Of a stretch of DNA of 34,480 nt, positions 3,001 to 34,480 are shown one piece after another. The notes beneath the pieces are model-generated. The model worked only from the letters and a program-made list of their open reading frames with translations, was not told the DNA's origin and ran no database searches. Source of the DNA: Bacteroidales bacterium (GTDB lineage Bacteria; Bacteroidota; Bacteroidia; Bacteroidales; PUMT01). The position numbers were made by a program, and so were the translations under genes. The stretch covers positions 1 to 34,480 of the forward strand of contig SLOS01000374.1 of NCBI GenBank assembly GCA_007132365.1. Direction: 5' to 3'. How positions within the stretch are numbered: the stretch's first letter is position 1; each line of letters begins with the position of its first letter.

Positions 3001-3261
3001 GCAGTTGAAGCAGGGTACTGGACTAACTGGCGCTACAATCCCCTTCTTGAAAATGAGGGAAAGAATCCTTTTATTCTTGATTCCAAAGAACCCGACTGGA
3101 GTAAATTCCAGGAATTTTTGAAATCCGAAGTTCGTTATACATCACTTCAGAAAGCTTTCCCCGATGTAGCCGCGGACTTATTCAAGGCGGCAGAAGAAAA
3201 TGCCAGATGGAGATACAACAGTTATGTCAGGATGGCTTCAATGGATTTCTCCAAAGTATAA
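1..3261 (+). CDS. nifJ: pyruvate:ferredoxin (flavodoxin) oxidoreductase, 5' end cut by the window edge
   Basis: The frame is open from base 1. The >1080-aa product has a tandem ferredoxin domain (CIQCNQCSYVCPH, CTGCGNCVDICP) and a TPP-binding region (GGDGWAYDIGYGGLDH...DTEVYSNTGGQ). The C-terminal PFOR domain ends in ...RYNSYVRMA. Full-length PFOR is about 1170-1190 aa, so roughly 90-100 aa are missing. Confidence 0.93.
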   Translation, partial: LLLMIPNMYKISGELLPGVFHVSARSLAAQALSIFGDHSDVMSTRHTGFALLATGSVQEIMDIGAVAHLASIKTRVPFLHFFDGFRTSHEIQKVEACDQDEMEKLIDKDAVQAFRERALNPEHPVTRGTAQNPDIYFQSREAANKFFDAVPDAVEEYMQKVSKITGREYHPFTYYGDPDAENIIVAMGSVTDTIKETIDYLKLQGEKAGLLSVHLYRPFSSKYFMKAFPKSVKRIAVLDRTKEPGANGEPLYLDVKDLFYGMPDAPVIVGGRYGLSSKDTTPAMISSVYKNLKMAEPKNGFTLGIVDDVTYRSLPLLPEIDVSPKGNYAAKFFGIGADGTVGANKNSIIIIGDTTDKYAQAYFAYDSKKSGGITVSHLRFGDKPIRSPYLVNTADFIACHVPAYLEKYDLLKGLKKGGTFLLNSIWDEEETKKKLPVKMKKYMAENDIHFYMINATSIAEEIGLGGRTNTIMQSAFFKISNVIPYDNAVDEMKKAIIKSFGMKGEEIVAMNHAAVDRGGDVVRIDIPADWKKLDDKKPEDKRDIPDFIKNIMEPINAQNGDSLPVSAFLGREDGTFPAGTTAYEKRGIAVHVPEWLPDNCIQCNQCSYVCPHSVIRPFLLTDEEVKNAPEGTVTIKGLGGTKEYQYRMQISPLDCTGCGNCVDICPSKTKALEMQTLESQMVENERWDYMHHKVGYKDTVLDKAKSVKNSQFAQPLFEFSGACAGCGETPYIKLITQLYGDRMMVANATGCSSIYGGSAPSTPYTVNKNGYGPAWANSLFEDNAEYGYGMMLGVRQMRIKIEGLMKKGLESDLSPEIKEAFKEWLETKDDGEKSKAASDKVKEVLKNKKDDISVEIMKLKQYLVKKSIWVFGGDGWAYDIGYGGLDHVIASGDDINMLVMDTEVYSNTGGQASKSTPIGAVAKFAAAGKRIRKKDLGVMAMSYGYVYVAQVALGASQAQFFKAAREAEAYPGPSVLIAYSPCINHGFRGGMGKTMEQSKRAVEAGYWTNWRYNPLLENEGKNPFILDSKEPDWSKFQEFLKSEVRYTSLQKAFPDVAADLFKAAEENARWRYNSYVRMASMDFSKV

Positions 3262-4503: not shown

Positions 4504-4702
4504 TTTTCCCGAATATTTTATTTCAATATGACTTCAGGCTTTTTTTGTTAAAAAAATCATATATTTTTAACATTTAAACATTTTTTAACCGGAGTAAATT
4601 ATGACGCAGGAGGCCAATTGTTTTATTAGCTGATTTCCTGCGCAAGAGATATGTTTAAAGATTCGGGCAATTACCTTATTGTGCTCAAAGATCAATATAA
4701 TA

Positions 4703-17350: not shown

Positions 17351-18607
17351 ATGGGGAGTATCATAAGGCTTGGATTATTGTTCTGGGAGAACATTCGAAT
17401 CTCATTTCAGTCAATACTTTCAAGTAAGCTCCGGACAATTCTGACTGTATTCATTATTGCTTTTGGCATAATGGCGTTAGTTGGTATTCTTACCGCCATT
17501 GATGCTATAAAGGCCTCTATCAGTACCTCTTTTATGAGTATGGGAGCTAATACTTTTTTGATTGAGGGACGCAATGTGACGAGGATTGCATCAGACAGGC
17601 AACCGGTAAGGAATTATGCTTTCATCAGTTACAGGGAGGCCAATACTTTTAAGGAGAATTTTGAATTTCCTGCCAATATTTCGGTTTTTATAACAGCTTC
17701 CGGTAGTGCAGCAATAAGCCATGGTTCGAAGAAAAGCAATCCTAATGTAACTGTTGTAGGCACAGATGAGGAATATTTATTGACTGCCGGCTATGAGATA
17801 GAGAGGGGAAGAAACTTTACCCACAATGATATAGAGATGAACCGTCATCTCGCCATAATTGGCAGGGAGGTTGTCAACAATATTTTTGATGCAGGTGAGG
17901 ACCCTCTTGACAAAATAATTACTGTAGGAAGCGGTAATTACAGAATTATTGGAATTCTGAAGGAAAAAGGAACCACATTCGGTGGGGGAGGTGACAATAT
18001 ATGCATTCTGCCGGTAACAAATGTCAGGCAATATTTTTCCCGCCCCAGGATGAATTACAGGATAAACGTTATGCCTTCGAGTCCCCACCTTCTAGAAATT
18101 GCAGTCAGTGAGGCAGAAGGGGTCTTCAGGCAGGTTCGGGGACTAAGGCCCGGTGATGAATCTGATTTCAGGATCACCAAGAGTGATAACCTTGCCAACA
18201 TGGTCATAGAAAACCTTCGCTATGTTACTATAGCTGCCACACTTATTGGTATTATAACCCTTTTTGGAGCCGCGGTTGGGCTTATGAATATCATGCTTGT
18301 TTCTGTCACAGAGCGAACCAGGGAAATCGGGATCAGAAAAGCCATGGGTGCCAAGAGTTCCTATATAAAGCACCAGTTTTTGTTTGAGGCAGTTATTATC
18401 GGACAGCTTGGTGGTTTTGTAGGCATTCTTCTGGGCATATTGATTGGCAACCTGGTATCTCTTTTAACCGGGTCACCCTTTGTGGTTCCATGGATATGGA
18501 TCATTTCCGGAGTCTTGCTATGCTTCATAGTAGGCCTTTCATCCGGATATTTCCCGGCTGTTAAAGCTTCAAAGCTAGACCCCATTGTTGCACTCAGATA
18601 TGAATAA
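17351..18607 (+). CDS. ABC transporter permease, MacB/FtsX family
   Basis: An N-terminal TM helix is followed by a large periplasmic domain and a C-terminal FtsX 3-TM bundle. The signature ERTREIGIRKAMGA is present. No ATPase gene is adjacent. Confidence 0.88.
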   Translation: MGSIIRLGLLFWENIRISFQSILSSKLRTILTVFIIAFGIMALVGILTAIDAIKASISTSFMSMGANTFLIEGRNVTRIASDRQPVRNYAFISYREANTFKENFEFPANISVFITASGSAAISHGSKKSNPNVTVVGTDEEYLLTAGYEIERGRNFTHNDIEMNRHLAIIGREVVNNIFDAGEDPLDKIITVGSGNYRIIGILKEKGTTFGGGGDNICILPVTNVRQYFSRPRMNYRINVMPSSPHLLEIAVSEAEGVFRQVRGLRPGDESDFRITKSDNLANMVIENLRYVTIAATLIGIITLFGAAVGLMNIMLVSVTERTREIGIRKAMGAKSSYIKHQFLFEAVIIGQLGGFVGILLGILIGNLVSLLTGSPFVVPWIWIISGVLLCFIVGLSSGYFPAVKASKLDPIVALRYE

Positions 18608-18624
18608 AACCAAAATCAGATCCT

Positions 18625-19011
18625 ATGAAACCGGAAGTCCTGAGAATTGAAAAAGAACAGAAAACCCCTTTTATTGAACTTGATCCATTTGAGGGCGTAT
18701 TGACGATTGAGGGCCGTTCAATACCTGAGGATCCTGAAGCATTTTATAATAATGTTTATACAAATATGCTTGAATATTATAAATCTCCCCGGAAACTCAC
18801 CACCTTTAATTTTCAGTTTGAATATATTAACTCCGGTTCATCCAAATTCATACTGAAATTTTTTCTGCTTATAAAGCAACAATATGATGCCGGTAATGAC
18901 TGTGTGGTTAACTGGCACTATGAGGAGGATGATGAGAATATCCTGGATCTGGGCCGGCATTATAAAAATACGTTTAAACTCCCGTTTAAATTTATTGAAA
19001 TATACGGTTAG
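18625..19011 (+). CDS. DUF1987 / SiaC-like small regulatory protein
   Basis: The 128-aa product matches the DUF1987 pattern: TPFIELDPFEGVLTIEGRSIPEDPEAFY, FNFQFEYINSGSSKFI, and NWHYEEDDENILDLG...LPFKFIE. Confidence 0.7.
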   Translation: MKPEVLRIEKEQKTPFIELDPFEGVLTIEGRSIPEDPEAFYNNVYTNMLEYYKSPRKLTTFNFQFEYINSGSSKFILKFFLLIKQQYDAGNDCVVNWHYEEDDENILDLGRHYKNTFKLPFKFIEIYG

Positions 19012-20661: not shown

Positions 20662-23600
20662 ATGAATCGTTTCTTTTGCCTTTTTTTTACAGTTAATTTT
20701 ATCGCCATTTCATATGGTTCCGGACAGACTGCCCCTGTAGCGGGACTCAGGGACAACACTCCCTCAGTGTATGCCTTTACCAATGCGAGAATAGTTGTGT
20801 CTGCGGGTAATGTCATTGAAAACGGGACACTGGTAATCCGCAACGGAATGATTGAATCTGCAGGATCCCGGGTCGAACCCCCTGCTGATGCCTGGCTGAC
20901 TGATATGGCAGGTAAATATATATATCCCGGGTTTATCGATTTGTGGGCTGAAATTGGGTTATCAGATCCGGATGAGGCCGGCCGCAGGGAATTAAGGTCG
21001 ATGAATATACCACCGGAATATGCAGAGCTTGCTGCGCAGCTGTTTACATTCGGCGCAGATGAACCGGTCCCTGAAGGCGCCTTGCACTGGAACCCCCAGG
21101 TGCGCAGCTGGTTTGATGTTTCATCTTTTTACAGGCATGATGAAGAAAAAGTTAAAAAAATGCGTTCAGCCGGATTCGTACTGGCAAACGCAGTACCTCC
21201 TGCAGGAATCTTCAGGGGCAGGACAGCTGTTGTCTCCCTTGGTGACGGAAACAATAACAAACTCCTGGTTAAGCCAAACGTTACCCAGGCTGTGAGTTTT
21301 ACAAGGTCCGGGGGCCTGGGTGGCAGATATCCCACATCCCTTATGGGAGTAATTTCCCTGATAAGGCAGACCTTTTATGACGCGGACTGGTACGGGGTTG
21401 CGCGGTCTGCCTATTTGAATGATCCTGTTGGGCGTGAGAGGCCTGAACTTAACCTTGCGCTTGAGGCATTGCTTGATGCATCAGGTGGCCGTCAACCCGT
21501 ATTATTTGATGCCGGCGATGAAATAGCGTTGATGAGGGCTACAGATATTGCTTCAGAGTTTGGACTGGACCTGTGGATCAGGGGGAGCGGGCATGAATAT
21601 CGCAGACTGGATTTTGTAAGGGATGCCGGTATACCCCTTGTGTTGCCACTGAACTTTCCCGTTGTGCCCGATCTGGAAACACCCGAAAGTGCAATGGATG
21701 TTTCGCTTGAAGAACTGAGACACTGGGATTTTGCTCCTGAAAATCCGGGCAGGCTGCATGATGCAGGTGTCAGGCTTGCACTTACCGCATCCGGCCCGGG
21801 AGACGGGGCCTCTTTTCTGGACAACCTCCGAATTGCTGTGGAGCGGGGTTTTGAGGAGGATGCTGCCCTTAATGCACTTACAATTAATCCTGCCGAAATG
21901 CTCGGCATGGAAAAACAATACGGATCAATTGAAAAAGGTAAAATTGCCAGTTTTATAGTTACAGACGGGCCCGTTTTTAATCCGTCAACCAGGATAGAAG
22001 AGGTGTGGGTTGACGGAGTGCAGTTTGAAATCAGCAAGCCACCGGATCCTGATGTGAGAGGCAGATGGGGCATCGAATCTGCCGGTATCGGAGAAGGTAA
22101 TCTGGAGATTGGGGGGACTGAAACGCGGTTAACCGGATCAATAGAAAAGGATGAAAAGAGTGTTAACCTGCAATCCGTAAAATTTGACAGACACAGGTTA
22201 AGTATAGTCTTTCGTGGTGATTCTGTTGGTATTGAAGGGATTATTCGTTTATCAGGAACAGTTTCAAAATCTGAATTATCCGGCATCGGGGAATTACCGG
22301 ATGGACGTTTCATACACTGGAAGGCTAAACGAATATCTGATCATCAGGATAAAAAAGAGAATGATGAACGTGAACGCTCCCGGATGTCTGAAGGGATAAT
22401 GCTTTATCCTTCAATGGAGTATGGTTTTGAGGCCATACCTGAAATGCCGGACCATGTGATTGTCAGGAATGCCACAATATGGACCCAGGGACCAGTTGGC
22501 AGGATTGAGCAAGCAGATTTGCTTGTTAGCAGGGGGAAGATTGTTAAGGTTGGCAATGGTATTGATGCTCCTGCGGGAGCCATTATTATTGATGGTACCG
22601 GCAAGCATGTAACCCCGGGACTTGTTGATCCTCATCTTCACAGCAGTATAAGGGGAGGAGTTAATGAGGCTGGAAACAATATTACCCCGGAGACAAGGAT
22701 AAAGGATGTAATTGAACCGGACAATATCTGGGTATACCGCCTTCTGGCAGGTGGAATGACAACTGCAAACCTTTTGCATGGCTCAGCCAATCCGGTTGGG
22801 GGACAGGATGCTGTGATAAAGATGAGGTGGGGGGCATTACCTGAGGAGATGATCCTGCAGGGAGCCAGGCCCGGCCTGAAACTTGCACTCGGAGAAAATG
22901 TGGTTCGCAACAGTAACCAGTATCCCAACACAAGGATGGGTGCAGAACAGATCATAAGGGATGCTTTTCAGGCAGCAAGGGATTATATGGAAGAATGGAG
23001 TAAATGGGAAAGCAGCAATACAGGTGTTCCTCCGAGGAAAGATCTTCAGCTTGAGGCTATGGCTGAAGTACTGAGGGGTGAAAGAATAATCCATGCCCAT
23101 GCCTATCGCCAGGATGAGATGCAGATGCTTATCCGGCTTGCAGAGAACATGGGCTTTAAGATAGCTTCATTTGAGCATACAGTTGAGGGTTATAAAATTG
23201 CAGATATCCTGAGGGACCATGGCGCTGCCGCAATTATCTGGACCGACTGGAGCTCATTCAAGGTTGAAGCGGCCGACGGGATCCTTTACAACGCTAGGAT
23301 TTTGCTTGAACAGGGAGTCCTTACCTCTCTGCATTCAGACAACACACAGCTGTCAACCCGTATGAACTGGGAGGCAGGAAAAATGGTGGCAACAGGGATA
23401 GATGAGATTGCAGCAATGGATCTTATCACGATTAATCCAGCGAGGATACTTGGTGCCGACAAACTTATAGGTTCACTTGAACCAGGGAAGCATGCTGATT
23501 TCGTTATCTGGAGCGGACACCCCTTGTCTGGCTTTACTCATGCCGAACAGACATGGGTTGACGGCAGGAAGTATTTCGACAGGGATGAGGATCTGCGCCG

Positions 23601-23739
23601 CCGGAATGAGGTTATAGAAGAACGTGCGGTGCTGATACAGAAGGCTGTTGCCAAAACTGCCGCATCAGGCCGGGCAGCTTCCTCTCGACCGCATATAGGG
23701 GCAGCCGGCCCCGGTCATTCATTGCAAACCAAATTTTAA
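20662..23739 (+). CDS. secreted two-module amidohydrolase-superfamily protein (1025 aa)
   Basis: It has a signal peptide (MNRFFCLFFTVNFIAISYG). The N-terminal module is amidohydrolase-like but reads IDLWAE where HxH is expected. The C-terminal module has an intact VDPHLH metal motif and the typical ...GSLEPGKHADFVIW tail. Confidence 0.8.
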   Translation: MNRFFCLFFTVNFIAISYGSGQTAPVAGLRDNTPSVYAFTNARIVVSAGNVIENGTLVIRNGMIESAGSRVEPPADAWLTDMAGKYIYPGFIDLWAEIGLSDPDEAGRRELRSMNIPPEYAELAAQLFTFGADEPVPEGALHWNPQVRSWFDVSSFYRHDEEKVKKMRSAGFVLANAVPPAGIFRGRTAVVSLGDGNNNKLLVKPNVTQAVSFTRSGGLGGRYPTSLMGVISLIRQTFYDADWYGVARSAYLNDPVGRERPELNLALEALLDASGGRQPVLFDAGDEIALMRATDIASEFGLDLWIRGSGHEYRRLDFVRDAGIPLVLPLNFPVVPDLETPESAMDVSLEELRHWDFAPENPGRLHDAGVRLALTASGPGDGASFLDNLRIAVERGFEEDAALNALTINPAEMLGMEKQYGSIEKGKIASFIVTDGPVFNPSTRIEEVWVDGVQFEISKPPDPDVRGRWGIESAGIGEGNLEIGGTETRLTGSIEKDEKSVNLQSVKFDRHRLSIVFRGDSVGIEGIIRLSGTVSKSELSGIGELPDGRFIHWKAKRISDHQDKKENDERERSRMSEGIMLYPSMEYGFEAIPEMPDHVIVRNATIWTQGPVGRIEQADLLVSRGKIVKVGNGIDAPAGAIIIDGTGKHVTPGLVDPHLHSSIRGGVNEAGNNITPETRIKDVIEPDNIWVYRLLAGGMTTANLLHGSANPVGGQDAVIKMRWGALPEEMILQGARPGLKLALGENVVRNSNQYPNTRMGAEQIIRDAFQAARDYMEEWSKWESSNTGVPPRKDLQLEAMAEVLRGERIIHAHAYRQDEMQMLIRLAENMGFKIASFEHTVEGYKIADILRDHGAAAIIWTDWSSFKVEAADGILYNARILLEQGVLTSLHSDNTQLSTRMNWEAGKMVATGIDEIAAMDLITINPARILGADKLIGSLEPGKHADFVIWSGHPLSGFTHAEQTWVDGRKYFDRDEDLRRRNEVIEERAVLIQKAVAKTAASGRAASSRPHIGAAGPGHSLQTKF

Positions 23740-23749
23740 ATCCGGAGTG

Positions 23750-25036
23750 ATGAGAAATAAAATAAATATACTGAAGACCCTTTTTTACCTGGCAGCTTTT
23801 GCCGGTTTAATTGATTTGCATGCACAGATGCCGGCAACTGACCAGAGTGGCCCTGTCGCGCTGAAGGGCGGTACTGTGATAACTGTAACGGGCGAGGAGA
23901 TATCTGGTGGCACAGTGGTTTTTGACAAAGGCATTATTACCGCTGTTGGTGTTGATGTTTTTATTCCTGAAGGTGCAGAGATAGTTGATGTAACAGGCAA
24001 ATATGTATACCCGGCTTTGATACATGCCCGCAGTTCACTTGGGTTATCAGAGATTGGACGGATAACTGTTACGGTTGACCTGAATGAACATGGTACAATT
24101 AATCCAAATGCCAGGGCCTGGGTTGCCTGGCATGCCGAAAGCGAGCATATTCCCCTGGCAAGGACACATGGTATCGCCGTAACTGTTGCCACTCCCACCG
24201 GGGGGATCATATCGGGTTTGTCGGCAGCTATGCTCACCGACGGGTGGCACTGGGAGGAAATGACCTACCGGGCTCCAACCGCCCTTGTCATTAACTGGCC
24301 GGATATGGCTAATGTAAGGGCACGGGATAATGCACTGAAGGAGCTGTCGGAAGCTTTTGACGCAGCAAGAAGGTATATGACTGCAAGGCAGGCTGATGGC
24401 CTGCGTGGGATACCTCCCCACAATACCGATGTTCGCTGGGAGGCAATGATACCTGTTCTTGAGGGGGATGTGCCTGTTCATGTCAACGCCAATGACCTCA
24501 CACAAATCCAGTCCGCCATCAAATGGGCAGAAGAAGAAAATGTAAGGATGGTACTCGTGGGTGGAAGAGATGCCGGGTATCTCCTGCCGGAATTAAAGGA
24601 GAAACAAATTCCTGTTATCGTAACACCTGTGATCGGAGGGCCCTCCCGTCAATGGGAGGAATATGACAGAAGCTACAGGCTGCCCTCCATGCTCCATGAG
24701 GCAGGTATTGAATATTGTATTGCCGGTGATTATGCGGCAGCAAATGCCATCAGGCTGGCACATCACCCTGCAGCTGCCGTGGCTTTTGGACTTCCTGAAA
24801 AAGAGGCACTGAAAACCATTACACTTTACCCGGCCAGAATCCTGGGGCTTGACAAGAGAATGGGTTCGTTGGAAACAGGTAAGGATGCCTCGCTGATTGT
24901 TTCAGACGGAAACATCCTGGAACTTTCTACCCGGATTGAACAGGTCTACATCATGGGGCGCAATATCCATATGTATGATAAGCACAGGCGGTTGTACGAC
25001 AGGTATATTGAAAGATACAGCCGGATGGGCCCATGA
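23750..25036 (+). CDS. secreted amidohydrolase-like protein (about 428 aa), metal motif degenerate
   Basis: It has a signal peptide (LFYLAAFAGLIDLHAQ) and a beta-sandwich start (GGTVITVTGEE...FDKGIITAVG). The HxH position reads LIHARSS. The C-terminal GSLETGKDASLIVSDGN follows the family pattern. I prefer the ATG at 23750 over the GTG at 23747. Confidence 0.78.
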   Translation: MRNKINILKTLFYLAAFAGLIDLHAQMPATDQSGPVALKGGTVITVTGEEISGGTVVFDKGIITAVGVDVFIPEGAEIVDVTGKYVYPALIHARSSLGLSEIGRITVTVDLNEHGTINPNARAWVAWHAESEHIPLARTHGIAVTVATPTGGIISGLSAAMLTDGWHWEEMTYRAPTALVINWPDMANVRARDNALKELSEAFDAARRYMTARQADGLRGIPPHNTDVRWEAMIPVLEGDVPVHVNANDLTQIQSAIKWAEEENVRMVLVGGRDAGYLLPELKEKQIPVIVTPVIGGPSRQWEEYDRSYRLPSMLHEAGIEYCIAGDYAAANAIRLAHHPAAAVAFGLPEKEALKTITLYPARILGLDKRMGSLETGKDASLIVSDGNILELSTRIEQVYIMGRNIHMYDKHRRLYDRYIERYSRMGP

Positions 25037-26676: not shown

Positions 26677-27861
26677 CTAAATGTATTCTGTTATTACCTC
26701 TTTCAAAAATTTTTCCTCCAGTTTCCGACCGATCCGTTTAAGTACGGTTCGCCTTATCTCCAGCTCAACGGGCAGGTTAGGATCCTGGTGGGCTATATTG
26801 ATCTTTGTGCCTATAACTATCCTTATCTCATCGCTTTCAAGGAGAAGTTTAACGATCTGATCAGCTGGTCCTTTGCCTAATGCGTAATTATGGGTGTATT
26901 CATTGAGTATTTTTGATACCTTGCTGAGCGTCAGAATGCCCTCGGTTACAAGGTCAACACCTTCCATATATGACATGGGCGGAAGATCGGGATCATGAAA
27001 TTCGAAAGTGTCTGTTATCTTCAGATCCAGTTCCCTTGCGACTATATCGCCTGTAGTGCCTCCGGACAAAATCTTTTTTCCCGGAAAATCATTTACAATG
27101 GATGCAAGTCTGGCATCATTTTCATCTTCAAACGGGGGCCCGCTGCAGAGAAGGAGTTTTCTGGGTTCCCTGAAGTAAAGGACGGCGCAGGAGGTGTCAT
27201 CCTGGGCGTTGTAATTGTCATTCCTGAAGGCTGCGTTAAGTATTCTTGACGCAAGCTTTTGCGCTGATATGTGAGGCTGCTGATCAATGATCTCCCTTAC
27301 GAAATCCTGCACATTATCCCATCCCCATCCGAAGGGATATTTTCTTGATCCCATCCCGGACTGGGTTATGCCGTCTGAACAGAATATTATCCTGTCTTCC
27401 TTGCGGGGGCGGAAGTGACAGCTTTTTATCTCTTTACCTTTGTTCTGTTCTGAACTTAAAATAAGGCAGTTCCATTCGGCCTCGAGCGGACTGCTGCCGC
27501 GCATGAGGAATGTGCCGGGGTTATCATATTCCAGTATGCTGGTTCTGGCGTTCATGTCAATATCGACGGCAGTAAATGTGGAGTAACTGATCTTGCGGAC
27601 ACTGCAGACAGGGAGGGTGTTCATTATTATTTCTGCAATGCGGGTTACATCCTTGTGCTCACGGGTAAAATTCAATGCCATTGATGCTGTAAGGGTTGCC
27701 AGGATATTGGCTTTCACACCATGCCCCATTCCGTCGGAAAGAACTGCCACAATTCTGTTCTCTTCCTTGATTCTGCGGGACAGGAATACATCGCCGCAGA
27801 TCCTCTCTTTTCCGTGGTTTTTTTGCTGATAACCAACTTCGACATAGAAACTATTCTCCAT
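26677..27861 (-). CDS. SpoIIE/PP2C-family Ser/Thr protein phosphatase with an uncharacterised C-terminal domain of about 150 aa
   Basis: The PP2C core is ERICGDVFLSRR...VAVLSDGMGHGVKANILATL...IIFCSDGITQSG...DDTSCAVLYF. The preferred start MENSFYVEVGY at 27861 overlaps the hydS-like stop by 11 nt. The ORF track's 27897 start would overlap it by 47 nt. Confidence 0.82.
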   Translation of the reverse strand: MENSFYVEVGYQQKNHGKERICGDVFLSRRIKEENRIVAVLSDGMGHGVKANILATLTASMALNFTREHKDVTRIAEIIMNTLPVCSVRKISYSTFTAVDIDMNARTSILEYDNPGTFLMRGSSPLEAEWNCLILSSEQNKGKEIKSCHFRPRKEDRIIFCSDGITQSGMGSRKYPFGWGWDNVQDFVREIIDQQPHISAQKLASRILNAAFRNDNYNAQDDTSCAVLYFREPRKLLLCSGPPFEDENDARLASIVNDFPGKKILSGGTTGDIVARELDLKITDTFEFHDPDLPPMSYMEGVDLVTEGILTLSKVSKILNEYTHNYALGKGPADQIVKLLLESDEIRIVIGTKINIAHQDPNLPVELEIRRTVLKRIGRKLEEKFLKEVITEYI

Positions 27862-29722
27862 CTTCCCCGGGTTTTTCAGGCATTTTGTAAGATTCAATGA
27901 TACTGTTCAGCATAGCCTCTGTTTCCGAAGCGCCTTCCCCGAGAAGGAAACCTATCTGCTGAACCAGGCCCAGATTCTTGTCAATTACATCTGTCACTCT
28001 TTTTATTACCTCCTCTTTTCGCACCTCTGGAACGTAAAGGTCTCTTATAACGGCACCTACAACCTTGTTTTTCCGGATGGTGAATATTGAGACATTATAG
28101 AGGATTTCATTAAAATGTACATCGCGGTTAATAATATTATCGTCATGGCTGAGAACGTATGAAAACAGATTATGGAAGTTGTAGGGCAGCAGTGTTTTAA
28201 GGTCGGCACCCTCCAGCCCGGGAATAACATCCTCTATCATTTTCACCTCTTCGTCCAGAATATTGATAAAGCTTTTATTAGCCTGAATTACCTTAAGGTC
28301 ACTATCCACCAGCACCACGCTGGAGGGGAGCTTCTCAAGCATCGTGCGGGTTGTTTCAAAGGATTCTCTTGCAAGTTGCTGGTCACGCCTTGCATTTTTC
28401 TCCGACTTTTTAAGTGCTGCCTGTGTCTCGGCCAGTTTCTGGTTTGTCTCCCTGAGTGTTTTTATATAGTCATGACGGTTTTTAAGTGTGAAGGTAAGGC
28501 ACATCTCTGTCTTGGCGAGTCCCCGCGCCACTGCAACGGCAAAATCCCGGCAGGAAGGGTATCCGCAGGATGCGCAACCTATTTCGTCAACATTATGTTC
28601 TTTCCCGATCATCTGCAGTATTTCCTGTATCTTCTCCTCATCGGGGTATGGAAGGCGCTGGTCATCTTTTCTGAATTTTCTTGAGAGGTCAAGGGTGCTG
28701 AATTCATCCATCTCTTTCTCCCATGCCCTGAGGTTGAAATCCGCCAGCCTTTTTTTTGCATAAGCTATAACCAGGGCGTGACGAAGATATTTTTCCCCGC
28801 CCCTTGAAGTCCCCGGGCCCATTATACATCCTTCATTATAGAAAAGATTGAAATGCTTTTTTATTGAGTCTATATTTTTTTCAAACTGCCTGACAGCTTC
28901 CAGCATATTATTCCTGCCCTCTGCAGTGATAACCCTACCTGTAAGGAGGTGCTGGTCAATATCCGAAGCTTCCAGTATCCCCGTGCTTACAGGGTAAAGG
29001 GAGCCCTTATATCCTATTGGAGGATCAAAATCGGAAAACTCTACTTTCTTTTCAGTTATGTTGTATTCTGTAAAAAGCTCCCTCAGCTCTGTGAATGTCA
29101 GTACCGAGTCAACTCTGCCATCATCCCTCTGTTTTTTGCCCTCTTTTTTGGTTTCAATGCAGGGGCCGATATAAACGACCTTTACATCTTTACCGTATTT
29201 TTTTCTTACCACTTTTGCTGTTGCTGTCATTGGAGAAACTACAGGGGCAAGATTATCAGTAAGCTCGGGATGAAATTTTTCAATAAAAGAAACGACCGAG
29301 GGACAATTTGCAGTGATATAATATTTCCCTTTGAAATCTGCAAACAGGTCCTTGTATTTACGGGCCACAAGGTCAACTCCGAAGGATGCTTCAAGGACAT
29401 ATTCGAAACCGAGTGCCCTTATCATTTCCACAAACTTCCTGTAGTCGGTAATGTCATGAAACTCTCCTGAAATACTTGGTCCGCAAACTGCAGCAACTTT
29501 ATATTCCGACCTCAGCAGCTCTTTGGTCTCCTCTTTTGAATCCTGATAGCTGATGGCACCGGGAGAGCAGACTTTCAAACAGTGACCGCAACCTATACAT
29601 GCATTATGCATCACTTCCGGATAGTCCATATGTGCCTCTACCTTAATTGCATTTACCGGGCAGATCCTTACACAGGAATAGGAAAGGTTGCATTTGTTGT
29701 TGTCTATGTTTATAAGGGCCAT
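27851..29722 (-). CDS. putative sensory [FeFe]-hydrogenase-like protein (HydS/HfsB-like): ferredoxin domain, H-cluster-type domain, Cx2Cx4Cx16C motif, coiled coil and PAS
   Basis: N-terminal motifs are CNLSYSCVRICP and CIGCGHCLKVCSP. The hydrogenase large-subunit fold shows variant motifs ITANCPSVV (canonical TSCCPxW), IGPCIETKKE (canonical MPCxxKxxE) and NEGCIMGPG (canonical GCxxGG). These are followed by CASCGYPSCRDFAVAVARGLAKTEMC and a C-terminal PAS (LPSSVVLVDSDLKVIQANKSF...GAVIRDL). Confidence 0.8.
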   Translation of the reverse strand: MALINIDNNKCNLSYSCVRICPVNAIKVEAHMDYPEVMHNACIGCGHCLKVCSPGAISYQDSKEETKELLRSEYKVAAVCGPSISGEFHDITDYRKFVEMIRALGFEYVLEASFGVDLVARKYKDLFADFKGKYYITANCPSVVSFIEKFHPELTDNLAPVVSPMTATAKVVRKKYGKDVKVVYIGPCIETKKEGKKQRDDGRVDSVLTFTELRELFTEYNITEKKVEFSDFDPPIGYKGSLYPVSTGILEASDIDQHLLTGRVITAEGRNNMLEAVRQFEKNIDSIKKHFNLFYNEGCIMGPGTSRGGEKYLRHALVIAYAKKRLADFNLRAWEKEMDEFSTLDLSRKFRKDDQRLPYPDEEKIQEILQMIGKEHNVDEIGCASCGYPSCRDFAVAVARGLAKTEMCLTFTLKNRHDYIKTLRETNQKLAETQAALKKSEKNARRDQQLARESFETTRTMLEKLPSSVVLVDSDLKVIQANKSFINILDEEVKMIEDVIPGLEGADLKTLLPYNFHNLFSYVLSHDDNIINRDVHFNEILYNVSIFTIRKNKVVGAVIRDLYVPEVRKEEVIKRVTDVIDKNLGLVQQIGFLLGEGASETEAMLNSIIESYKMPEKPGEDGE

Positions 29723-29726
29723 TTTT

Positions 29727-29978
29727 TTATGTTATGTTCAAGGTTCGGTTAAGTAAATCCACTATATCTTCCGGTTTAACTCCCTCGTATATTTTATCTC
29801 CTATTTTCAGTATGGGGCCTTTATCACATTTGTCAAAACAACGACTCCCGTGAAAGAAAAACCTTTCCTCAAGGTGGTTGTCTTTTAGAAATTTTTCGAT
29901 GATTCCCATGCATAGCCTGTTGCCTCTTGAGAAGCATGAGCTGCCGAGGCAGATTACTATTTCCTGTTTATCATCCAT
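29727..29978 (-). CDS. thioredoxin-like [2Fe-2S] ferredoxin (83 aa)
   Basis: The Cys pattern is C10-x4-C15-x31-C47-x3-C51 (ICLGSSCF...GSRCFDKCDKGP), the NuoE/HydC-type arrangement. Its stop lies 4 nt before the hydS-like start. Confidence 0.75.
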   Translation of the reverse strand: MDDKQEIVICLGSSCFSRGNRLCMGIIEKFLKDNHLEERFFFHGSRCFDKCDKGPILKIGDKIYEGVKPEDIVDLLNRTLNIT

Positions 29979-30030
29979 AATACCGCATCTCTTTTTCTGT
30001 GTTTAAATCAACAAAAGCCTGATATTAAAG

Positions 30031-30038
30031 CAAAAATA
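30031..30038 (-). promoter_or_regulatory. candidate -7 box (TATTTTTG) for the ferredoxin-hydS-PP2C operon
   Basis: The minus strand reads TACTATTTTTGC. That is an exact TAnnTTTG match about 50 nt upstream of the ferredoxin ATG. Confidence 0.3.
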
Positions 30039-30067
30039 GTATTTTTTTTATTCAAAAACATGCCTTT

Positions 30068-30095
30068 AAACATTGTTAATTTTGTAACAATGTTT
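30068..30095. promoter_or_regulatory. perfect 11-bp inverted repeat, candidate operator (Rex- or CRP/FNR-type geometry)
   Basis: The sequence is AAACATTGTTA-attttg-TAACAATGTTT. The core TGTTA-N6-TAACA, equivalently TTGTTAa-N4-gTAACAA, lies in the divergent hydrogenase promoter region. Confidence 0.45.
30077..30084 (+). promoter_or_regulatory. candidate -7 box (TAATTTTG) for hydCBA, embedded in the palindrome
   Basis: It is an exact TAnnTTTG match about 90 nt upstream of the hydC ATG. Confidence 0.3.
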
Positions 30096-30175
30096 GTGGA
30101 GTAACAATAATTTTTTGTAAAATTGTGTTTTATAGTTCACCGGTGATTTAATAACCTGGTTCAACAAAAATAATT

Positions 30176-30640
30176 ATGGATGATCAAACTTCTGTAATAC
30201 TCTCCAGGTATCCCAGGGGGCATCGTGATTGCCTCATTCCCATATTGCAGGACATTCAGGAAGAGTACGGTTATCTATCCGAGTCCTCCGTCATTGAAGT
30301 CGCCCGGTACCTTGGTTTGCCATCAAGTAAGATATTCGGACTGGCAACTTTCTATAATCAGTTTCGTTTTGAGCCCAGGGGGCGTTTTCATATCCGTCTT
30401 TGTCACGGAACATCTTGCCATGTAACTGCTGCATCAGAGATCATTAAGGAACTTGGAAAAAAACTCAGGATAGGTCCCGGGGAGATTTCAAGGGATGGAA
30501 TGTTCAGCCTGGAGCTTGTTGCATGCATGGGAGCATGCCATTTGGCCCCCCTTATGCAGGTTAACGATAATTACCACACCAGACTTGATCCCGCCGGTAT
30601 CAGGGATATAATAGATTCATATATAGAAGGGGAGGAATAA
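30176..30640 (+). CDS. hydC: NuoE-like [2Fe-2S] subunit of an NAD(P)H-linked [FeFe]-hydrogenase (HydC/HndA type)
   Basis: It has LIPILQDIQEEYGYL and the Cys pattern RLCHGTSCHV...ACMGACHLAP (Cx4Cx35Cx3C). Confidence 0.9.
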   Translation: MDDQTSVILSRYPRGHRDCLIPILQDIQEEYGYLSESSVIEVARYLGLPSSKIFGLATFYNQFRFEPRGRFHIRLCHGTSCHVTAASEIIKELGKKLRIGPGEISRDGMFSLELVACMGACHLAPLMQVNDNYHTRLDPAGIRDIIDSYIEGEE

Positions 30641-30642
30641 TT

Positions 30643-32595
30643 ATGTCTTTAAACACTCATATACCTGTTGATAAGGAGTACCTTGTAAACAATGTCCTTT
30701 TGAATGAATCTGCAGATCTTCCGGCCGATGTTGAAAAACTGCTTAAGCTTGTACGCCGGGAAAAAGTGAAATATCCGGTTATTTTTGTCGGAACCGGAAG
30801 TTGCGGACTCATTTCCGGTGCAGGAGAGACTCTTATTGAAATAAACAAGTATTTGTCTGACAGGGATTTAAGAGCCGATGTGGTCGAGACCGGATGTACC
30901 GGTTATTGCTCTATGGAGCCGGTGATTGAAGTCCAGTTACCCGGTAAAACCAGGGTCTCATTTAAAAATGTCACCTCAGAAAAACTTCCTTTTGTTCTTG
31001 ACGGCATGTTTAACAGTATGGTTCCCGTGGAGCATGTGCTGGGACAGTATAAAAGTCCCTCGCTTGAATTGTGGAAGGATGTTCCCTTTATAGGTGAGCT
31101 TTCTTTTTTCTCAATGCAATACAGGAACCTGATGAAAAACTGGGGCCGTATCAATCCCCTCTCCATAGAAGAATACATAGCAACAGGCGGATACAGGTCT
31201 TACATAAAAACTATAAGGAATTATACACATGAGGAGGTTTGCGATATAGTTGAGAAAAGCGGTCTTCAGGGCAGGGGTGGAGGAGGCTTCCTTACGGGGA
31301 AGAAATGGAAGGTTGCCCATACCGTTATGGCTGACCAGCGCTACCTGCTTTGCAATGCTGATGAGAGTGATCCCGGAGGTTTTGCCAACAGGGCGATGAT
31401 TGAGAGTGATCCGCATCGTCTCCTGGAGGGTGTGATCATTGCGGCATATGCAATAGGGACTTCAAAGGCATATATATACATACGCAACGATTACAGGAAC
31501 GCAATAGAAAGACTGGAAAAAGCAGTTGACAGGGCCAGGGATTACGGTCTTCTGGGGCACGACGTATACGGCAGCGGGTTTAACATTGACGTAATTATCA
31601 GAAAAGGCCCCGGTGCGTTTGTCTGCGGAGAAGAGACGGCCATGATAAGCAGTATTGAGGGCAAACGCGGCATGCCAAGGCCCAAACCACCCTATCCGGC
31701 CGTTTCCGGGCTGTTTGGCAAGCCTACGGTTGTAAATAATGTAGAGACCCTGTCAAATATTCCTGCAATCTTTGAAAACGGCCCGGACTGGTTCATGTCC
31801 CTGGGCAATGAGACATCTCCCGGTACCAAGATGCTTGTTTTATCAGGAAAGGTAAATAACCAGGGAATAATTGAGGTACCTATGGGTACCAGTGTAAAAG
31901 ATCTGATTTTTGGAGCGGGAGGAGGAATTCCCGGAAAAAAAAGTTTCAGGGCCGTCCAGATAGGAGGTCCTTCCGGCGGATTCATTACAGCCGATAACAT
32001 TGATATTCCCTATGACTTTGATTCCCTTGCATCAGAAGGTGTCTATATGGGCTCGGGTGTCATGGTAGTACTTGACCAGGATTGCTGCATAATAGATACA
32101 GTAAAATATTTTATGGATTTTATTCAGAAGGAGAGCTGCGGCAAATGCATCCCCTGCCGGGAAGGTACACGCCGCATGCTGGAAGTTTATGAAAATATTA
32201 CAAAACGGCCGGTAGATGAAAACGGCCATACCACGCTTGAACGGTTCAAGGGGGTGATGCAGCTTGAAAGTCTTGCCAGTGTGATAAAAGATACCTCTTT
32301 ATGCGGACTCGGACAGAAAGCTCCCAATCCCGTTATAAGTTCACTGAAATATTTTCGCAGTGAATATGAGGAGCATATATTTGACAGGAAATGCAGTGCT
32401 GGTGTATGCAAGGAGCTGAGGTTATTTTATATTGACGTGGAAAAGTGTACCGGTTGTACGGCCTGTGCACCAAAATGCCCCGAGTCAGCAATAATAGGTA
32501 CAAAGCATCACCCGTTTTTTATTGTTGAAGAGAAATGTACGGGTTGTGGTATATGTTATGATGTTTGTAAATTCAGTGCCATCCTGGTAAAATAG
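30643..32595 (+). CDS. hydB: NuoF-like flavoprotein subunit (HydB/HndC type) with an N-terminal thioredoxin-like domain and a C-terminal 2x[4Fe-4S] ferredoxin domain
   Basis: It has GTGSCGLISGAG...GCTGYCSMEP, the FMN site GLQGRGGGGFLTGKKW, CNADESDPG and the N3-type cluster ESCGKCIPCREG. The C-terminus carries CTGCTACAPKCP and CTGCGICYDVC. The start is 2 nt after the hydC stop. Confidence 0.92.
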   Translation: MSLNTHIPVDKEYLVNNVLLNESADLPADVEKLLKLVRREKVKYPVIFVGTGSCGLISGAGETLIEINKYLSDRDLRADVVETGCTGYCSMEPVIEVQLPGKTRVSFKNVTSEKLPFVLDGMFNSMVPVEHVLGQYKSPSLELWKDVPFIGELSFFSMQYRNLMKNWGRINPLSIEEYIATGGYRSYIKTIRNYTHEEVCDIVEKSGLQGRGGGGFLTGKKWKVAHTVMADQRYLLCNADESDPGGFANRAMIESDPHRLLEGVIIAAYAIGTSKAYIYIRNDYRNAIERLEKAVDRARDYGLLGHDVYGSGFNIDVIIRKGPGAFVCGEETAMISSIEGKRGMPRPKPPYPAVSGLFGKPTVVNNVETLSNIPAIFENGPDWFMSLGNETSPGTKMLVLSGKVNNQGIIEVPMGTSVKDLIFGAGGGIPGKKSFRAVQIGGPSGGFITADNIDIPYDFDSLASEGVYMGSGVMVVLDQDCCIIDTVKYFMDFIQKESCGKCIPCREGTRRMLEVYENITKRPVDENGHTTLERFKGVMQLESLASVIKDTSLCGLGQKAPNPVISSLKYFRSEYEEHIFDRKCSAGVCKELRLFYIDVEKCTGCTACAPKCPESAIIGTKHHPFFIVEEKCTGCGICYDVCKFSAILVK

Positions 32596-32622
32596 TTCTG
32601 GTAGCTTTAAATAACCGAAAAG

Positions 32623-34347
32623 ATGATAGTAAGGATAGAGGTTAACAATAAAATCATTAAAGCGCGAAAGGGAGAGACCATAATGTCCGCCCTCAGGTCA
32701 GCCGGTATAATGATCCCCTCCATATGCTCAATGAAGGATTTCACTCCTACCGGAGCCTGCAGGATGTGTGTGGTCGAAGTGGAAGGCAGGCAGGGGCTGG
32801 TACCTTCATGTTCACAGCCTGTCAGTGAATGGATGAAGATAAAAACCCATTCTCCCAGGGTAGTGAAATCGAGAAAAACAATAGTAGAACTGCTTTTATC
32901 CAATCATCCCGATGATTGCCTTTACTGTGAACGCAATGGCAACTGTGAACTGCAGACACTTGCCGAAGAGCTGAATGTGAGGGAGCGGCGCATCATGGGT
33001 AAAAAAAACAAATACAAACTTGACCACTCCAGTCCCTCGATTGTCCGCGATCCCGCCAAATGCATACTTTGCGGACGGTGCGTGCGTGTATGTGAAGAGA
33101 GGCTGTCGGTATTTGCAATTGATTTTGTCAACCGGGGAAACAGGACAATAATAGGAACAGCATTTAACAAGGATCTTAACTTTTCAAGTTGTATCAATTG
33201 CGGACAATGCATAATGGTTTGTCCCACCGGAGCCTTATTTGAGAAAGACAGTCTCCCCGAGATCGAAGATGCACTCAATAATCCTGAAAAAACTGTAGTT
33301 GTTCAATACGCACCTTCAGTAGGTGTTACCCTGGCTGAGGAGTTTGGAATCAAGCCCGGGAAGGATATCGGCGGACTGGTAATTGCGGCCCTCAGGAAGA
33401 TAGGGTTTGACCGGATATTTGATACCTCCTTTGCTGCCGATATAGCCGTTGTTGAGATGGCACATGAACTGCTGTCCTTGAAGGGCAAAAAAGACAGAAT
33501 GCCGCTTATTTCAGGCAGCTGTCCCGCCTGGGTGAAGTTTGCAGAACAGTGGTATCCCGATCTTTTGCCGGCTGTGTCATCATGCAAATCACCGCAGCAG
33601 ATGCTGGGAGCAATTCTAAAATCCGGGTATCCCGGGATATCCGGTACAGATGCCGGCAGTATCTTTTCCGTGGCAGTGGCACCCTGCACCGCAAAAAAGT
33701 TTGAGGCACAGAGAGAAGAGATGACCAAAAAGGGACTATCTGATATAGATGCCGTACTTACCACCAGGGAGCTGGCCAAGCTTATAAAACTTTACGGTAT
33801 TGATATGAGCCAGATCGAACCTGAAGTTGCTGATGAGCCATACGGAATGCGTAGTTCGGCCGGCAAATTGTTTGGTGCATCGGGCGGAATGGCTGAAGCC
33901 ATTATTCGCTCCCTGCCATATGCTGCCGGAGCAAAAGAGCCTTCCCGGATAAAATATCAGGAGCTAAGGGGAGGCAGGGGAAGAAAAGAGGCGGAGATAA
34001 GGATTGGTAAAACCACATACCGGTTTGCTGTTGCAGGTGGTATGTCAAATGCGGTTAATCTTATTGAGGATATCCGGGCAGGAAACTGTGAATACGATTT
34101 CGTAGAGATAATGGCCTGCGCCGGCGGATGTGTCAATGGTGGCGGCCAGCCTATAGGTGCTGATGATAATGCAATAAGGGCAAGGATGAAGGCTCTCCAT
34201 GGTATTGATGAAAAGGAAACAATAAGGGTTGCCCATAAAAATCCCAGGATCAGTGAGTTATATGATAATTTTCTTGGCAGTCCCCTAAGCGGAAAATGCA
34301 AATCACTGTTACATACCAGTTATTCGGAAAGAAAAGTTTTATTATAA
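32623..34347 (+). CDS. hydA: [FeFe]-hydrogenase large subunit, M3 (CpI-like) architecture, 574 aa, with non-canonical proton-pathway residues
   Basis: Accessory clusters are intact: a [2Fe-2S] (C35, C46, C49, C63), an HxxxCxxCx5C cluster (HPDDCLYCERNGNC) and two [4Fe-4S] clusters (CILCGRCVRVC, CINCGQCIMVCP). H-cluster motifs read ISGSCPAWV, APCTAKKFE and FVEIMACAGGCVNGGGQP. Confidence 0.9.
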   Translation: MIVRIEVNNKIIKARKGETIMSALRSAGIMIPSICSMKDFTPTGACRMCVVEVEGRQGLVPSCSQPVSEWMKIKTHSPRVVKSRKTIVELLLSNHPDDCLYCERNGNCELQTLAEELNVRERRIMGKKNKYKLDHSSPSIVRDPAKCILCGRCVRVCEERLSVFAIDFVNRGNRTIIGTAFNKDLNFSSCINCGQCIMVCPTGALFEKDSLPEIEDALNNPEKTVVVQYAPSVGVTLAEEFGIKPGKDIGGLVIAALRKIGFDRIFDTSFAADIAVVEMAHELLSLKGKKDRMPLISGSCPAWVKFAEQWYPDLLPAVSSCKSPQQMLGAILKSGYPGISGTDAGSIFSVAVAPCTAKKFEAQREEMTKKGLSDIDAVLTTRELAKLIKLYGIDMSQIEPEVADEPYGMRSSAGKLFGASGGMAEAIIRSLPYAAGAKEPSRIKYQELRGGRGRKEAEIRIGKTTYRFAVAGGMSNAVNLIEDIRAGNCEYDFVEIMACAGGCVNGGGQPIGADDNAIRARMKALHGIDEKETIRVAHKNPRISELYDNFLGSPLSGKCKSLLHTSYSERKVLL

Positions 34348-34389
34348 TGTGTGCTTCTTACAATGTTATAGACATTTCAGGAACTGACT

Positions 34390-34480
34390 ATGAATAATGC
34401 AGATGATCACAAAAAGCTTCTGATAACACTCAAGGACAGGTGCCGTGTTTGCTATACATGTGTCAGGGAATGTCCCGCCA
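34390..34480 (+). CDS. 5' end of an Fe-S protein gene, probably a second HydS-like or Fe-S sensory protein, cut by the window edge
   Basis: My translation is MNNADDHKKLLITLKDRCRVCYTCVRECPA.... The CxxCxxCxxxCP motif aligns residue-for-residue with the N-terminus of the hydS-like gene (CNLSYSCVRICP). It starts 42 nt after the hydA stop with no terminator in between. Confidence 0.5.
   Translation, partial: MNNADDHKKLLITLKDRCRVCYTCVRECPA

Follow-up and report, generated by a model that had tools for sequence, protein, structure and literature searches.

How do fermenting anaerobes sense H2 and tune their hydrogenases accordingly? Putative sensory [FeFe]-hydrogenases have long been recognized, but no output pathway has been established for them. 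A contig of a Bacteroidales bacterium (assembly GCA_007132365.1, SLOS01000374.1) poses the question in a concrete form. The stretch that we analyzed, called the window below, is the entire contig of 34,480 nucleotides (nt), whose last gene is broken off at the contig end. Near that end two divergent operons flank a common control region: one encodes a small [2Fe-2S] ferredoxin, a HydS-type putative sensor (HydS-PAS) and a PP2C phosphatase, the other the HydC, HydB and HydA subunits of a hydrogenase. The initial annotation described the first operon as a sensing module without a kinase or DNA-binding output and as part of an incompletely described regulatory system. Does this module stand alone, or does it belong to something larger? 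Our analysis favors the second answer: the locus, which lies mostly in the window, is a conserved 11-gene Bacteroidota unit that probably makes and multiply controls a confurcating [FeFe]-hydrogenase. The features of the window that carry the argument are as follows, with profile E-values or the type of evidence at the end of each line.

26677–27861, minus strand: PP2C (SpoIIE-family) Ser/Thr phosphatase, 394 amino acids (aa); Pfam SpoIIE, 3.2e-13.
27851–29722, minus strand: HydS-type putative sensory [FeFe]-hydrogenase-like protein (HydS-PAS), 623 aa; Fe_hyd_lg_C, 1.4e-41.
29727–29978, minus strand: small thioredoxin-like [2Fe-2S] ferredoxin, 83 aa; Pfam 2Fe-2S_thioredx, 7.8e-8.
29979–30175, no strand: divergent control region common to both operons, 197 bp; map of open reading frames (ORFs).
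30068–30095 (core 30073–30090), no strand: Rex-operator-like inverted repeat; inverted-repeat and consensus scan.
30176–30640, plus strand: HydC, NuoE-like [2Fe-2S] subunit, 154 aa; 2Fe-2S_thioredx, 7.8e-49.
30643–32595, plus strand: HydB, NuoF-like subunit for flavin mononucleotide and NADH, 650 aa; Complex1_51K, 1.6e-43.
32623–34347, plus strand: HydA, catalytic [FeFe]-hydrogenase subunit of the HydABC type, 574 aa; Fe_hyd_lg_C, 9.4e-82.
34390–34480, plus strand: first 30 codons of a predicted HydS–histidine kinase fusion (HydS-HK); identity to the gene of the related contig L001.

The ORF map agreed with the initial annotation on the gene positions, the 4-nt gap between the ferredoxin and hydS genes, the 11-nt overlap of hydS with the PP2C gene and the 197-bp control region. 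The longest PP2C ORF begins at TTG 27897; a start at ATG 27861 yields 394 aa, the constant length of this protein among more than 100 homologues, and this start gives the 11-nt overlap with hydS. In the opposite operon, hydC and hydB are separated by 2 nt and hydB and hydA by 27 nt. The ORF after hydA starts with an ATG at 34390, 42 nt past the end of hydA, and reaches the window end. A scan of this gap revealed no terminator-like hairpin between 34347 and 34390, which supports the initial view that a second HydS-like Fe-S gene follows hydA without a terminator.

The identity of this cut gene came from comparison with related genomes. Its 91 nt (34390–34480) matched positions 5296–5206 of L001, a 73-kb contig from a metagenome-assembled Bacteroidales genome, with 96.7% DNA identity and 30/30 identical residues. 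L001 carries a HydS 95% identical to that of the window, and the two contigs share 85–97% DNA identity over aligned segments and 89% across the locus itself; an exact look-up of the window's own HydS protein returned no record, and its context was taken from P0001 (95% identical) and P0022. The full-length L001 orthologue of the cut gene has 663 aa and contains Fer4, Fe_hyd_lg_C (4.9e-48), FeS, HisKA (2.2e-13) and HATPase_c (1.1e-25) domains. Its joining of the H-domain, FeS, HisKA and HATPase_c is the arrangement of HydDB group C1 (PMC5037454), and by these orthologue domains the cut gene is a predicted kinase-linked C1 sensor. Past hydS-HK, on the same strand and with short gaps, L001 encodes a 131-aa receiver (REC), a 347-aa receiver-HisKA-HATPase_c hybrid (REC-HK), a 209-aa Rex (198 bits with the NCBIfam model, cutoff 126) and RibF, and the second relative L002 has the same arrangement. 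Read outward from the control region, the gene order in relatives is hydC, hydB, hydA, hydS-HK, REC, REC-HK, rex and ribF in one direction, and ferredoxin, hydS-PAS and PP2C in the other.

We next consider how widely this order is kept. A scan of one genome per species with the HydS-PAS alignment detected at least 565 relatives and supplied 80 loci; ORFs in these loci were called and identified by their best BLASTP match among the proteins of the window and L001, and the denominators given here count only loci whose contig reaches far enough. Nearly all of the loci carry Bacteroidota labels (Bacteroidales, Lentimicrobium, Tenuifilaceae, Rikenellaceae and Williamwhitmania). HydC was present in 71/73 loci, HydB in 63/65, HydA in 58/60, HydS-HK and REC each in 55/59, REC-HK in 53/58 and Rex in 51/56. 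On the other side, the small ferredoxin was found upstream of hydS in 65/76 loci, and PP2C in 71/76 by a stricter criterion and otherwise after hydS-PAS in 81/82. Because the triplet and the divergent hydCBA genes are syntenic across 80 other species-level loci, as far as the contigs reach, their adjacency is not a matter of chance. By this synteny the ferredoxin–HydS-PAS–PP2C triplet is a conserved unit, a point on which the initial annotation had made its claim depend, and one arm of the larger conserved unit. When one and the same pair of genomes is compared, the hydrogenase subunits have diverged further than PP2C and HydS-PAS; between the window and locus L013, for example, identities were 67% for PP2C and 62% for HydS-PAS compared to 57% for HydA, 57% for HydB and 50% for HydC. 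This difference points to strong constraint on the regulators.

These results bear directly on the idea of an orphan signaling module that lacks a kinase or DNA-binding output and represents a substantially undescribed system. Within the window, indeed, the locus is bordered by no kinase, STAS protein, anti-sigma factor or transcription factor, and no PP2C substrate is evident. However, the contig stops 91 nt into the HydS-histidine kinase gene, the receiver, receiver-kinase and Rex genes come next in the orthologous loci of more than 50 species, and the control region contains a Rex-like box. The apparent lack of a kinase and a DNA-binding output is an artefact of the contig end, and the "missing" kinase and DNA-binding regulator were most likely cut off with it. 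In addition, the phosphatase-linked module had already been described, being catalogued as HydDB C3 and hfsABC and known from Ruminococcus albus HydS, so that the claim of an incompletely described system did not hold. We therefore regard an orphan module as hardly credible; the locus rather exemplifies how a contig end can produce an apparent orphan system.

The second line of evidence comes from the control region. Positions 30068–30095 form a perfect inverted repeat, AAACATTGTTA-N6-TAACAATGTTT, with arms of 11 nt. Its core, TTGTTAATTTTGTAACAA (30073–30090), is 85 and 94 nt away from the ATG codons of hydC and the ferredoxin gene, respectively. The core differs by one mismatch from TTGTNAANNNNTTNACAA; no other site in the 34.5-kb window comes that close, and the expected number is 0.14. 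The published Rex consensus is TTGTGAANNNNTTCACAA (PMC6391272). Among the orthologous hydC–ferredoxin spacers, 59/73 matched at least 10 of the 12 specified bases, compared to about 5.5 for shuffles, and most of these Rex-like sites were located 57–95 nt upstream of the hydC start. Since rex belongs to the same gene string, the simplest reading is that Rex, through this predicted operator, controls hydCBA and possibly the divergent operon. A role for Rex in controlling bifurcating hydrogenases has been proposed for other phyla, and the arrangement resembles the Rex regulons of Firmicutes, Thermotogae and the Desulfovibrio-type Hnd, in which an 18-bp palindrome near TTGTGAANNNNTTCACAA precedes a hydrogenase operon with a linked rex gene. 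In contrast to classical Rex regulons, the candidate half-site in this family is mostly TTGTTA. The literature that we searched contained no paper on Rex regulons in Bacteroidota.

The spacer of the palindrome also contains TAATTTTG (30077–30084), which fits the Bacteroidota −7 motif TAnnTTTG. With this motif inside the Rex-like palindrome, a bound repressor could occlude the hydC promoter. We make no claim for a conserved overlap of the −7 box with the Rex box, because in aligned sites the overlap fails in several orthologous regions. A promoter scan with a σ70 model was uninformative for Bacteroidota.

The operon downstream of this site appeared to encode a HydABC-type enzyme. HydC scored 144.1 bits against the NCBIfam nuoE_fam model (cutoff 142.4). 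HydB matched, besides Complex1_51K, the NADH_4Fe-4S (2.4e-27), SLBB and Fer4 profiles of Pfam and ends with a C-terminal 2x[4Fe-4S] domain. HydA aligned over residues 3–571 with the electron-bifurcating HydA1 of 8a6t (6.7e-162) and contains the Pfam domains Fer2_4, NADH-G_4Fe-4S_3, Fer4, Fe_hyd_lg_C and Fe_hyd_SSU; its 726 bits on NCBIfam FeFe_hydrog_A6 fall below the cutoff of 765. We predict, with the same good confidence as for the whole locus of which this assignment is a part, that HydCBA is an NADH- and ferredoxin-linked, electron-confurcating hydrogenase of the HydABC/group A3 type.

The catalytic subunit is nevertheless atypical, as noted initially. Its L1 motif reads SGSCPAW instead of the canonical TSCCPxW, placing Ser at the position of the proton-relay Cys, and its L2 motif reads APCTAKKFE instead of MPCxxKxxE, with Ala replacing Met353; the L3 motif is canonical. 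Across 62 orthologues the relay residue was Cys in 35, Asp in 10, Ser in 7, Asn in 4, Ala in 2, and Thr, Val and Tyr in 1 each. It differs even among the close relatives of the window, and Met353 is also often substituted. In engineered enzymes, the Cys-to-Ser change kept the cofactor, left 0.03–1.3% of the wild-type H2 evolution and biased the enzyme to H2 oxidation, whereas Cys-to-Asp left about 10–58% of the wild-type H2 evolution (PMC9563086). HydA is 72–91% identical among close relatives and its identity tracks that of HydB, which indicates purifying selection and rules out decay of HydA. The relay variation looks like natural tuning rather than decay.

We then turn to the protein that gives the triplet its presumed sensory role. 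The initial annotation had read the 623-aa ORF as a HydS-type hydrogenase, and the profile search agreed, placing it in the Fe-hydrogenase large-subunit family: Fe_hyd_lg_C covers residues 75–303 of HydS-PAS over the full profile length and matches 40/40 family members. The protein also contains two Fer4 motifs and a PF04060 FeS domain (3.5e-8), and its best sequence match in the PDB is HydA1 of 8a6t (1.3e-22). Pfam upheld the other initial domain calls (ferredoxin, HydS, PP2C and HydC-HydB-HydA) and lent weaker support to the PAS domain, PAS_8 reaching 2.8e-3 and 18 bits in the window protein (cutoff 21.8) and matching 31/40 of its relatives with a best E-value of 3.6e-5. A Cx2Cx4Cx16C motif (C383/C386/C391/C408) is invariant in 40 HydS-PAS sequences. 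In the published M2f architecture, a ferredoxin-like N-terminus, an H-domain, Cx2Cx4Cx16C and a PAS domain follow one another, and the proton-relay Cys299 and Met353 are not conserved (PMC8163306). HydS-PAS has Asn at the relay position (L1, TANCPSV) and Gly for Met353 (L2, GPCIETKK), and in its paralogue HydS-HK the relay position is invariably Asp. By these features HydS-PAS resembles the group C/M2f HydS-type putative sensors, and by gene linkage the phosphatase-linked group C3; HydDB lists C1 (histidine kinase-linked) and C3 (phosphatase-linked) as putative sensory [FeFe]-hydrogenases of undetermined roles (PMC5037454).

A ferredoxin-like N-terminus, a relay-less H-domain and a Cx2Cx4Cx16C motif are also found in the HydS proteins of Thermotoga maritima (TmHydS; M2f, group C) and Thermoanaerobacter mathranii (TamHydS; M2e, group D), M2f adding the PAS domain, and both genes adjoin a bifurcating group A hydrogenase (PMC8163306, PMC10407848). 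The relay position is occupied by Ala in TmHydS and TamHydS, compared to Asn in HydS-PAS and Asp in HydS-HK. The likely redox partner of HydS-PAS, the small ferredoxin, corresponds to the C-terminal half of NuoE: it aligns to positions 65–143 of the 2Fe-2S_thioredx profile and has four cysteines, C10, C15, C46 and C50.

HydS-PAS departs from the characterized HydS enzymes at a ligand of the H-cluster itself. Of the four H-cluster cysteines (C300, C355, C499 and C503 by CpI numbering), three are present in the window protein as C140, C188 and C299, and the equivalent of C499, which ligates the [4Fe-4S] part of the H-cluster, is Asn296 (FYNEGC); we found no report of such a loss of the first L3 Cys in characterized HydS enzymes. 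Among 82 species-level loci this position is Cys in 61, Asn in 14 and Asp in 7. All 15 sequences at least 72% identical to the window HydS-PAS have Asn, whereas relatives at 60–64% identity almost always have Cys (FYCEGC). The first ferredoxin motif (residues 11–21) is also changed to C-x2-S-x2-C-x3-CP, with Ser14 for Cys and 7/8 cysteines left; across the 82 loci this position is Ser in 30, Asn in 5, Thr in 1 and Cys in 46. With an H-cluster cysteine replaced by Asn, the sensing chemistry of HydS-PAS may be altered.

These substitutions suggested another role, in which HydS-PAS of this clade is no longer an H2 sensor and serves as a redox or iron-sulfur sensor that gates PP2C through the PAS domain, reading the ferredoxin/NADH pool via its remaining clusters and the small ferredoxin. 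The Asn/Asp distribution at the H-cluster ligand and the incomplete ferredoxin motif both fit such a role, and the strong constraint on the rest of HydS-PAS and on PP2C argues that the protein is still in use. On the other hand, the invariance of C140, C188 and C299 and of their surrounding motifs suggests that the pocket is retained, and known [4Fe-4S] clusters include some held by three Cys and some with an Asp ligand. Cys80, which occurs in 56% of the Asn/Asp group compared to 4% of the others, might compensate for the lost ligand; as the only enriched cysteine, and one present in 56% of that clade, it did not convince us as a compensating ligand. On balance we consider a pure redox role possible but unlikely and keep H2 sensing by HydS-PAS in the preferred scheme.

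A further explanation would remove the triplet from regulation altogether and assign the ferredoxin, HydS-PAS and PP2C to a working hydrogenase, as its accessory or alternative subunits. It finds a precedent in hfsABCD, first described as the main hydrogenase of Thermoanaerobacterium saccharolyticum, where deletion of the whole operon lowers hydrogenase activity (PMC5707799, PMC11837493), and HydS does contain a full chain of Fe-S electron-transfer motifs. However, HydS lacks the proton-relay Cys and, here, also one H-cluster Cys, and the characterized HydS proteins are slow (PMC8163306, PMC10407848). Moreover, deletion of hfsB alone raises hydrogenase activity and alters adhE expression, which is the behavior of a regulator (PMC5707799), and it is hard to see what a PP2C whose catalytic residues are intact would do within a hydrogenase. 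We consider the subunit role very improbable and treat the triplet as regulatory in what follows.

The hfs comparison is informative in its own right. In hfsABCD of T. saccharolyticum and T. thermosaccharolyticum, a small protein (HfsA), a PAS-bearing HydS (HfsB) and a serine phosphatase (HfsC) are encoded in the order seen here, and the genetics of the operon point to regulation (PMC5707799, PMC11837493). By gene order and description, the ferredoxin stands in the position of HfsA and PP2C is the counterpart of HfsC. Unlike the window, where the triplet stands alone and diverges from HydCBA, the hfs operon closes with HfsD, a ferredoxin-linked hydrogenase resembling HydA2, and its host is a Firmicute rather than a member of Bacteroidota. 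A second parallel is R. albus HydS, which is described as combining an H-cluster, a PAS domain and a putative Ser/Thr phosphatase subunit, with Rex implicated, and has been proposed as an H2 sensor that regulates genes for hydrogenase and fermentation (PMC6776011, PMC10084766, PMC5707799). Unlike in R. albus, the window HydS pairs with HydABC, no Ser/Thr kinase is seen in the locus and the second sensor is fused to a histidine kinase. By analogy, the triplet would correspond, in Bacteroidota, to hfsABC and to the R. albus HydS-phosphatase module. The initial annotation had drawn the parallels with hfsABCD, R. albus HydS and Rex, and they proved apt.

The phosphatase is the candidate output of this arm. 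An AlphaFold2 model of PP2C (predicted local distance difference test score of 85) showed an N-terminal PP2C domain at residues 1–231, for which Foldseek retrieved a bacterial Ser/Thr phosphatase (3pu9), SpoIIE (5mqh), RsbU (3ke6) and SiaA (6k4e) with E-values from 6e-14 to 1e-7, and also RsbX. With SpoIIE, RsbU/RsbX and SiaA the protein shares the PP2C fold and the metal-binding residues. The metal-binding motifs GD24, D43-G-x-G-H-G, D163-G and D221-D222 are invariant in 44 homologues, making an active enzyme likely.

The remainder of the protein (residues 232–394, positions 26677–27168) forms a conserved and well-predicted alpha/beta domain. This domain gave no Pfam match even at an E-value of 10, nothing significant in a profile search of PDB sequences (the SIS domain of 3trj was a weak match at E 0.06) and nothing below E 1e-3 in Foldseek searches with the whole or the domain-only model. 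The top sub-threshold Foldseek matches were UbiX, methylglyoxal synthase and phosphoglycerate kinase, with E about 0.01 and template-modeling scores below 0.5. A "GGTTGD" segment recalls the phosphate-binding loops of methylglyoxal synthase and SIS proteins; we treat this as an impression only and leave the domain unnamed. The two-domain architecture of about 390 aa recurs in 338 representatives at E ≤1e-30, with identities down to about 31%, and extends to Fibrobacterota and to the Chloroflexota species Bellilinea caldifistulae.

The regulatory domain at the C-terminus, together with the lack of a STAS or SiaC-type substrate and of an anti-sigma kinase in the conserved locus, sets this phosphatase apart from partner-switching PP2Cs. 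No STAS protein, SiaC-type substrate or serine kinase was found beside the locus in the window, or within 10 kb on either side of it in L001 and L002; the absence of a STAS or anti-sigma partner had been pointed out initially and agrees with what is known of the Firmicute modules.

Elsewhere in the window, a SiaC-family phosphoprotein (PF09345, 1.6e-33) is encoded at 18625–19011, just downstream of an FtsX/MacB-type permease gene (17351–18607). SiaC proteins in Pseudomonas are substrates of a PP2C phosphatase. This gene is located 7.7 kb from the locus and is near it only in the four closest relatives, which ruled it out as a conserved PP2C substrate.

How could these parts work together? The most likely model, as far as sequence comparison can tell, is Rex-gated expression of the hydrogenase with H2 feedback from two sensor branches. 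At a low NADH/NAD+ ratio, Rex would bind 30073–30090 and turn off hydCBA and possibly the divergent operon. When NADH accumulates, Rex would release the site and the hydrogenase would be made, venting NADH and reduced ferredoxin as H2; with its gene at the distal end of the same string, rex would be autoregulated. Two slow, sensor-type H-cluster proteins without a catalytic proton relay would report H2 back-pressure. HydS-HK would feed a His-Asp phosphorelay via the stand-alone receiver and the receiver-kinase hybrid, and HydS-PAS, with the small [2Fe-2S] ferredoxin as its redox partner, would control PP2C, which would in turn dephosphorylate Ser/Thr on a target protein. In its logic this scheme is similar to HoxBC-HoxJ-HoxA, in which a hydrogenase of low turnover detects H2 and acts on a kinase that sets hydrogenase expression (PMC5707799). 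The two systems are unrelated, with different metal centers and protein families, and in the Hox system the output regulator, HoxA, is known.

Several observations weigh against this model. For this genome, the kinase, the receivers and Rex are placed by orthologous contigs and not read directly. The half-site of the palindrome, TTGTTA, differs from the classical Rex half-site TTGTGA, and another regulator could in principle bind there. Ser at the relay position of HydA makes the direction and rate of the enzyme uncertain, and with the cysteine losses at Asn296 and Ser14 a canonical H-cluster in HydS-PAS is not assured. Finally, the locus encodes no response regulator with a DNA-binding domain, and there is no evident PP2C substrate.

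Some of these deviations could also be parts of one design, with HydS-PAS repurposed as a redox sensor, HydA retuned at its relay residue, and control by three inputs: NADH via Rex, H2 via HydS-HK, and ferredoxin/redox state via HydS-PAS. PP2C, via its C-terminal domain, would then have as its target either the hydrogenase or one component of the His-Asp phosphorelay, and this would constitute a cross-talk of Ser/Thr and two-component signaling not yet described for hydrogen metabolism. We find this combination doubtful, more so than the change of HydS-PAS to a redox sensor taken alone, and retain Rex gating with H2 feedback as the preferred model.

Particular to the locus are the host phylum, the C1 and C3 sensors flanking a single HydABC operon with Rex and its candidate operator, and the residue changes in HydS-PAS and HydA. 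The literature that we searched contained no description of C1 and C3 sensors on either side of one hydrogenase operon, and no paper on the Bacteroidota arrangement as a whole, which is not proof that none exists. The locus leaves the general picture of sensory [FeFe]-hydrogenases unchanged and adds a Bacteroidota example of the catalogued phosphatase- and kinase-linked sensor classes beside HydABC and Rex. Its practical value lies in having all candidate players (two sensors, a phosphatase, a phosphorelay, and Rex with its operator) in one conserved string in more than 50 species. The natural variants (H-cluster Cys to Asn or Asp; relay Cys to Ser, Asp, Asn and other residues) could be used as natural experiments on the function of these positions.

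Other observations concern the surroundings of the locus. In about a dozen loci (L017, L025, L029, L036, L039, L045, L052, L057, L068, L071, L072, L074 and L077) a second hydrogenase cluster, in the order hydC, hydA, hydB, directly follows PP2C, sometimes with another HydS-like gene. The contig begins within a pyruvate:ferredoxin oxidoreductase gene (10–3261), whose product probably supplies the hydrogenase with reduced ferredoxin. A PAS-GAF-PAS histidine kinase encoded at 4679–6685 is unconnected to the conserved hydrogenase locus. Lastly, the segment 20284–25117, which contains two amidohydrolase-family genes (20662–23739 and 23747–25036), has no counterpart in the otherwise collinear L001; its G+C content is 0.47–0.51 compared to about 0.37–0.44 in the flanks, and it is probably an insertion or deletion difference between the two contigs.

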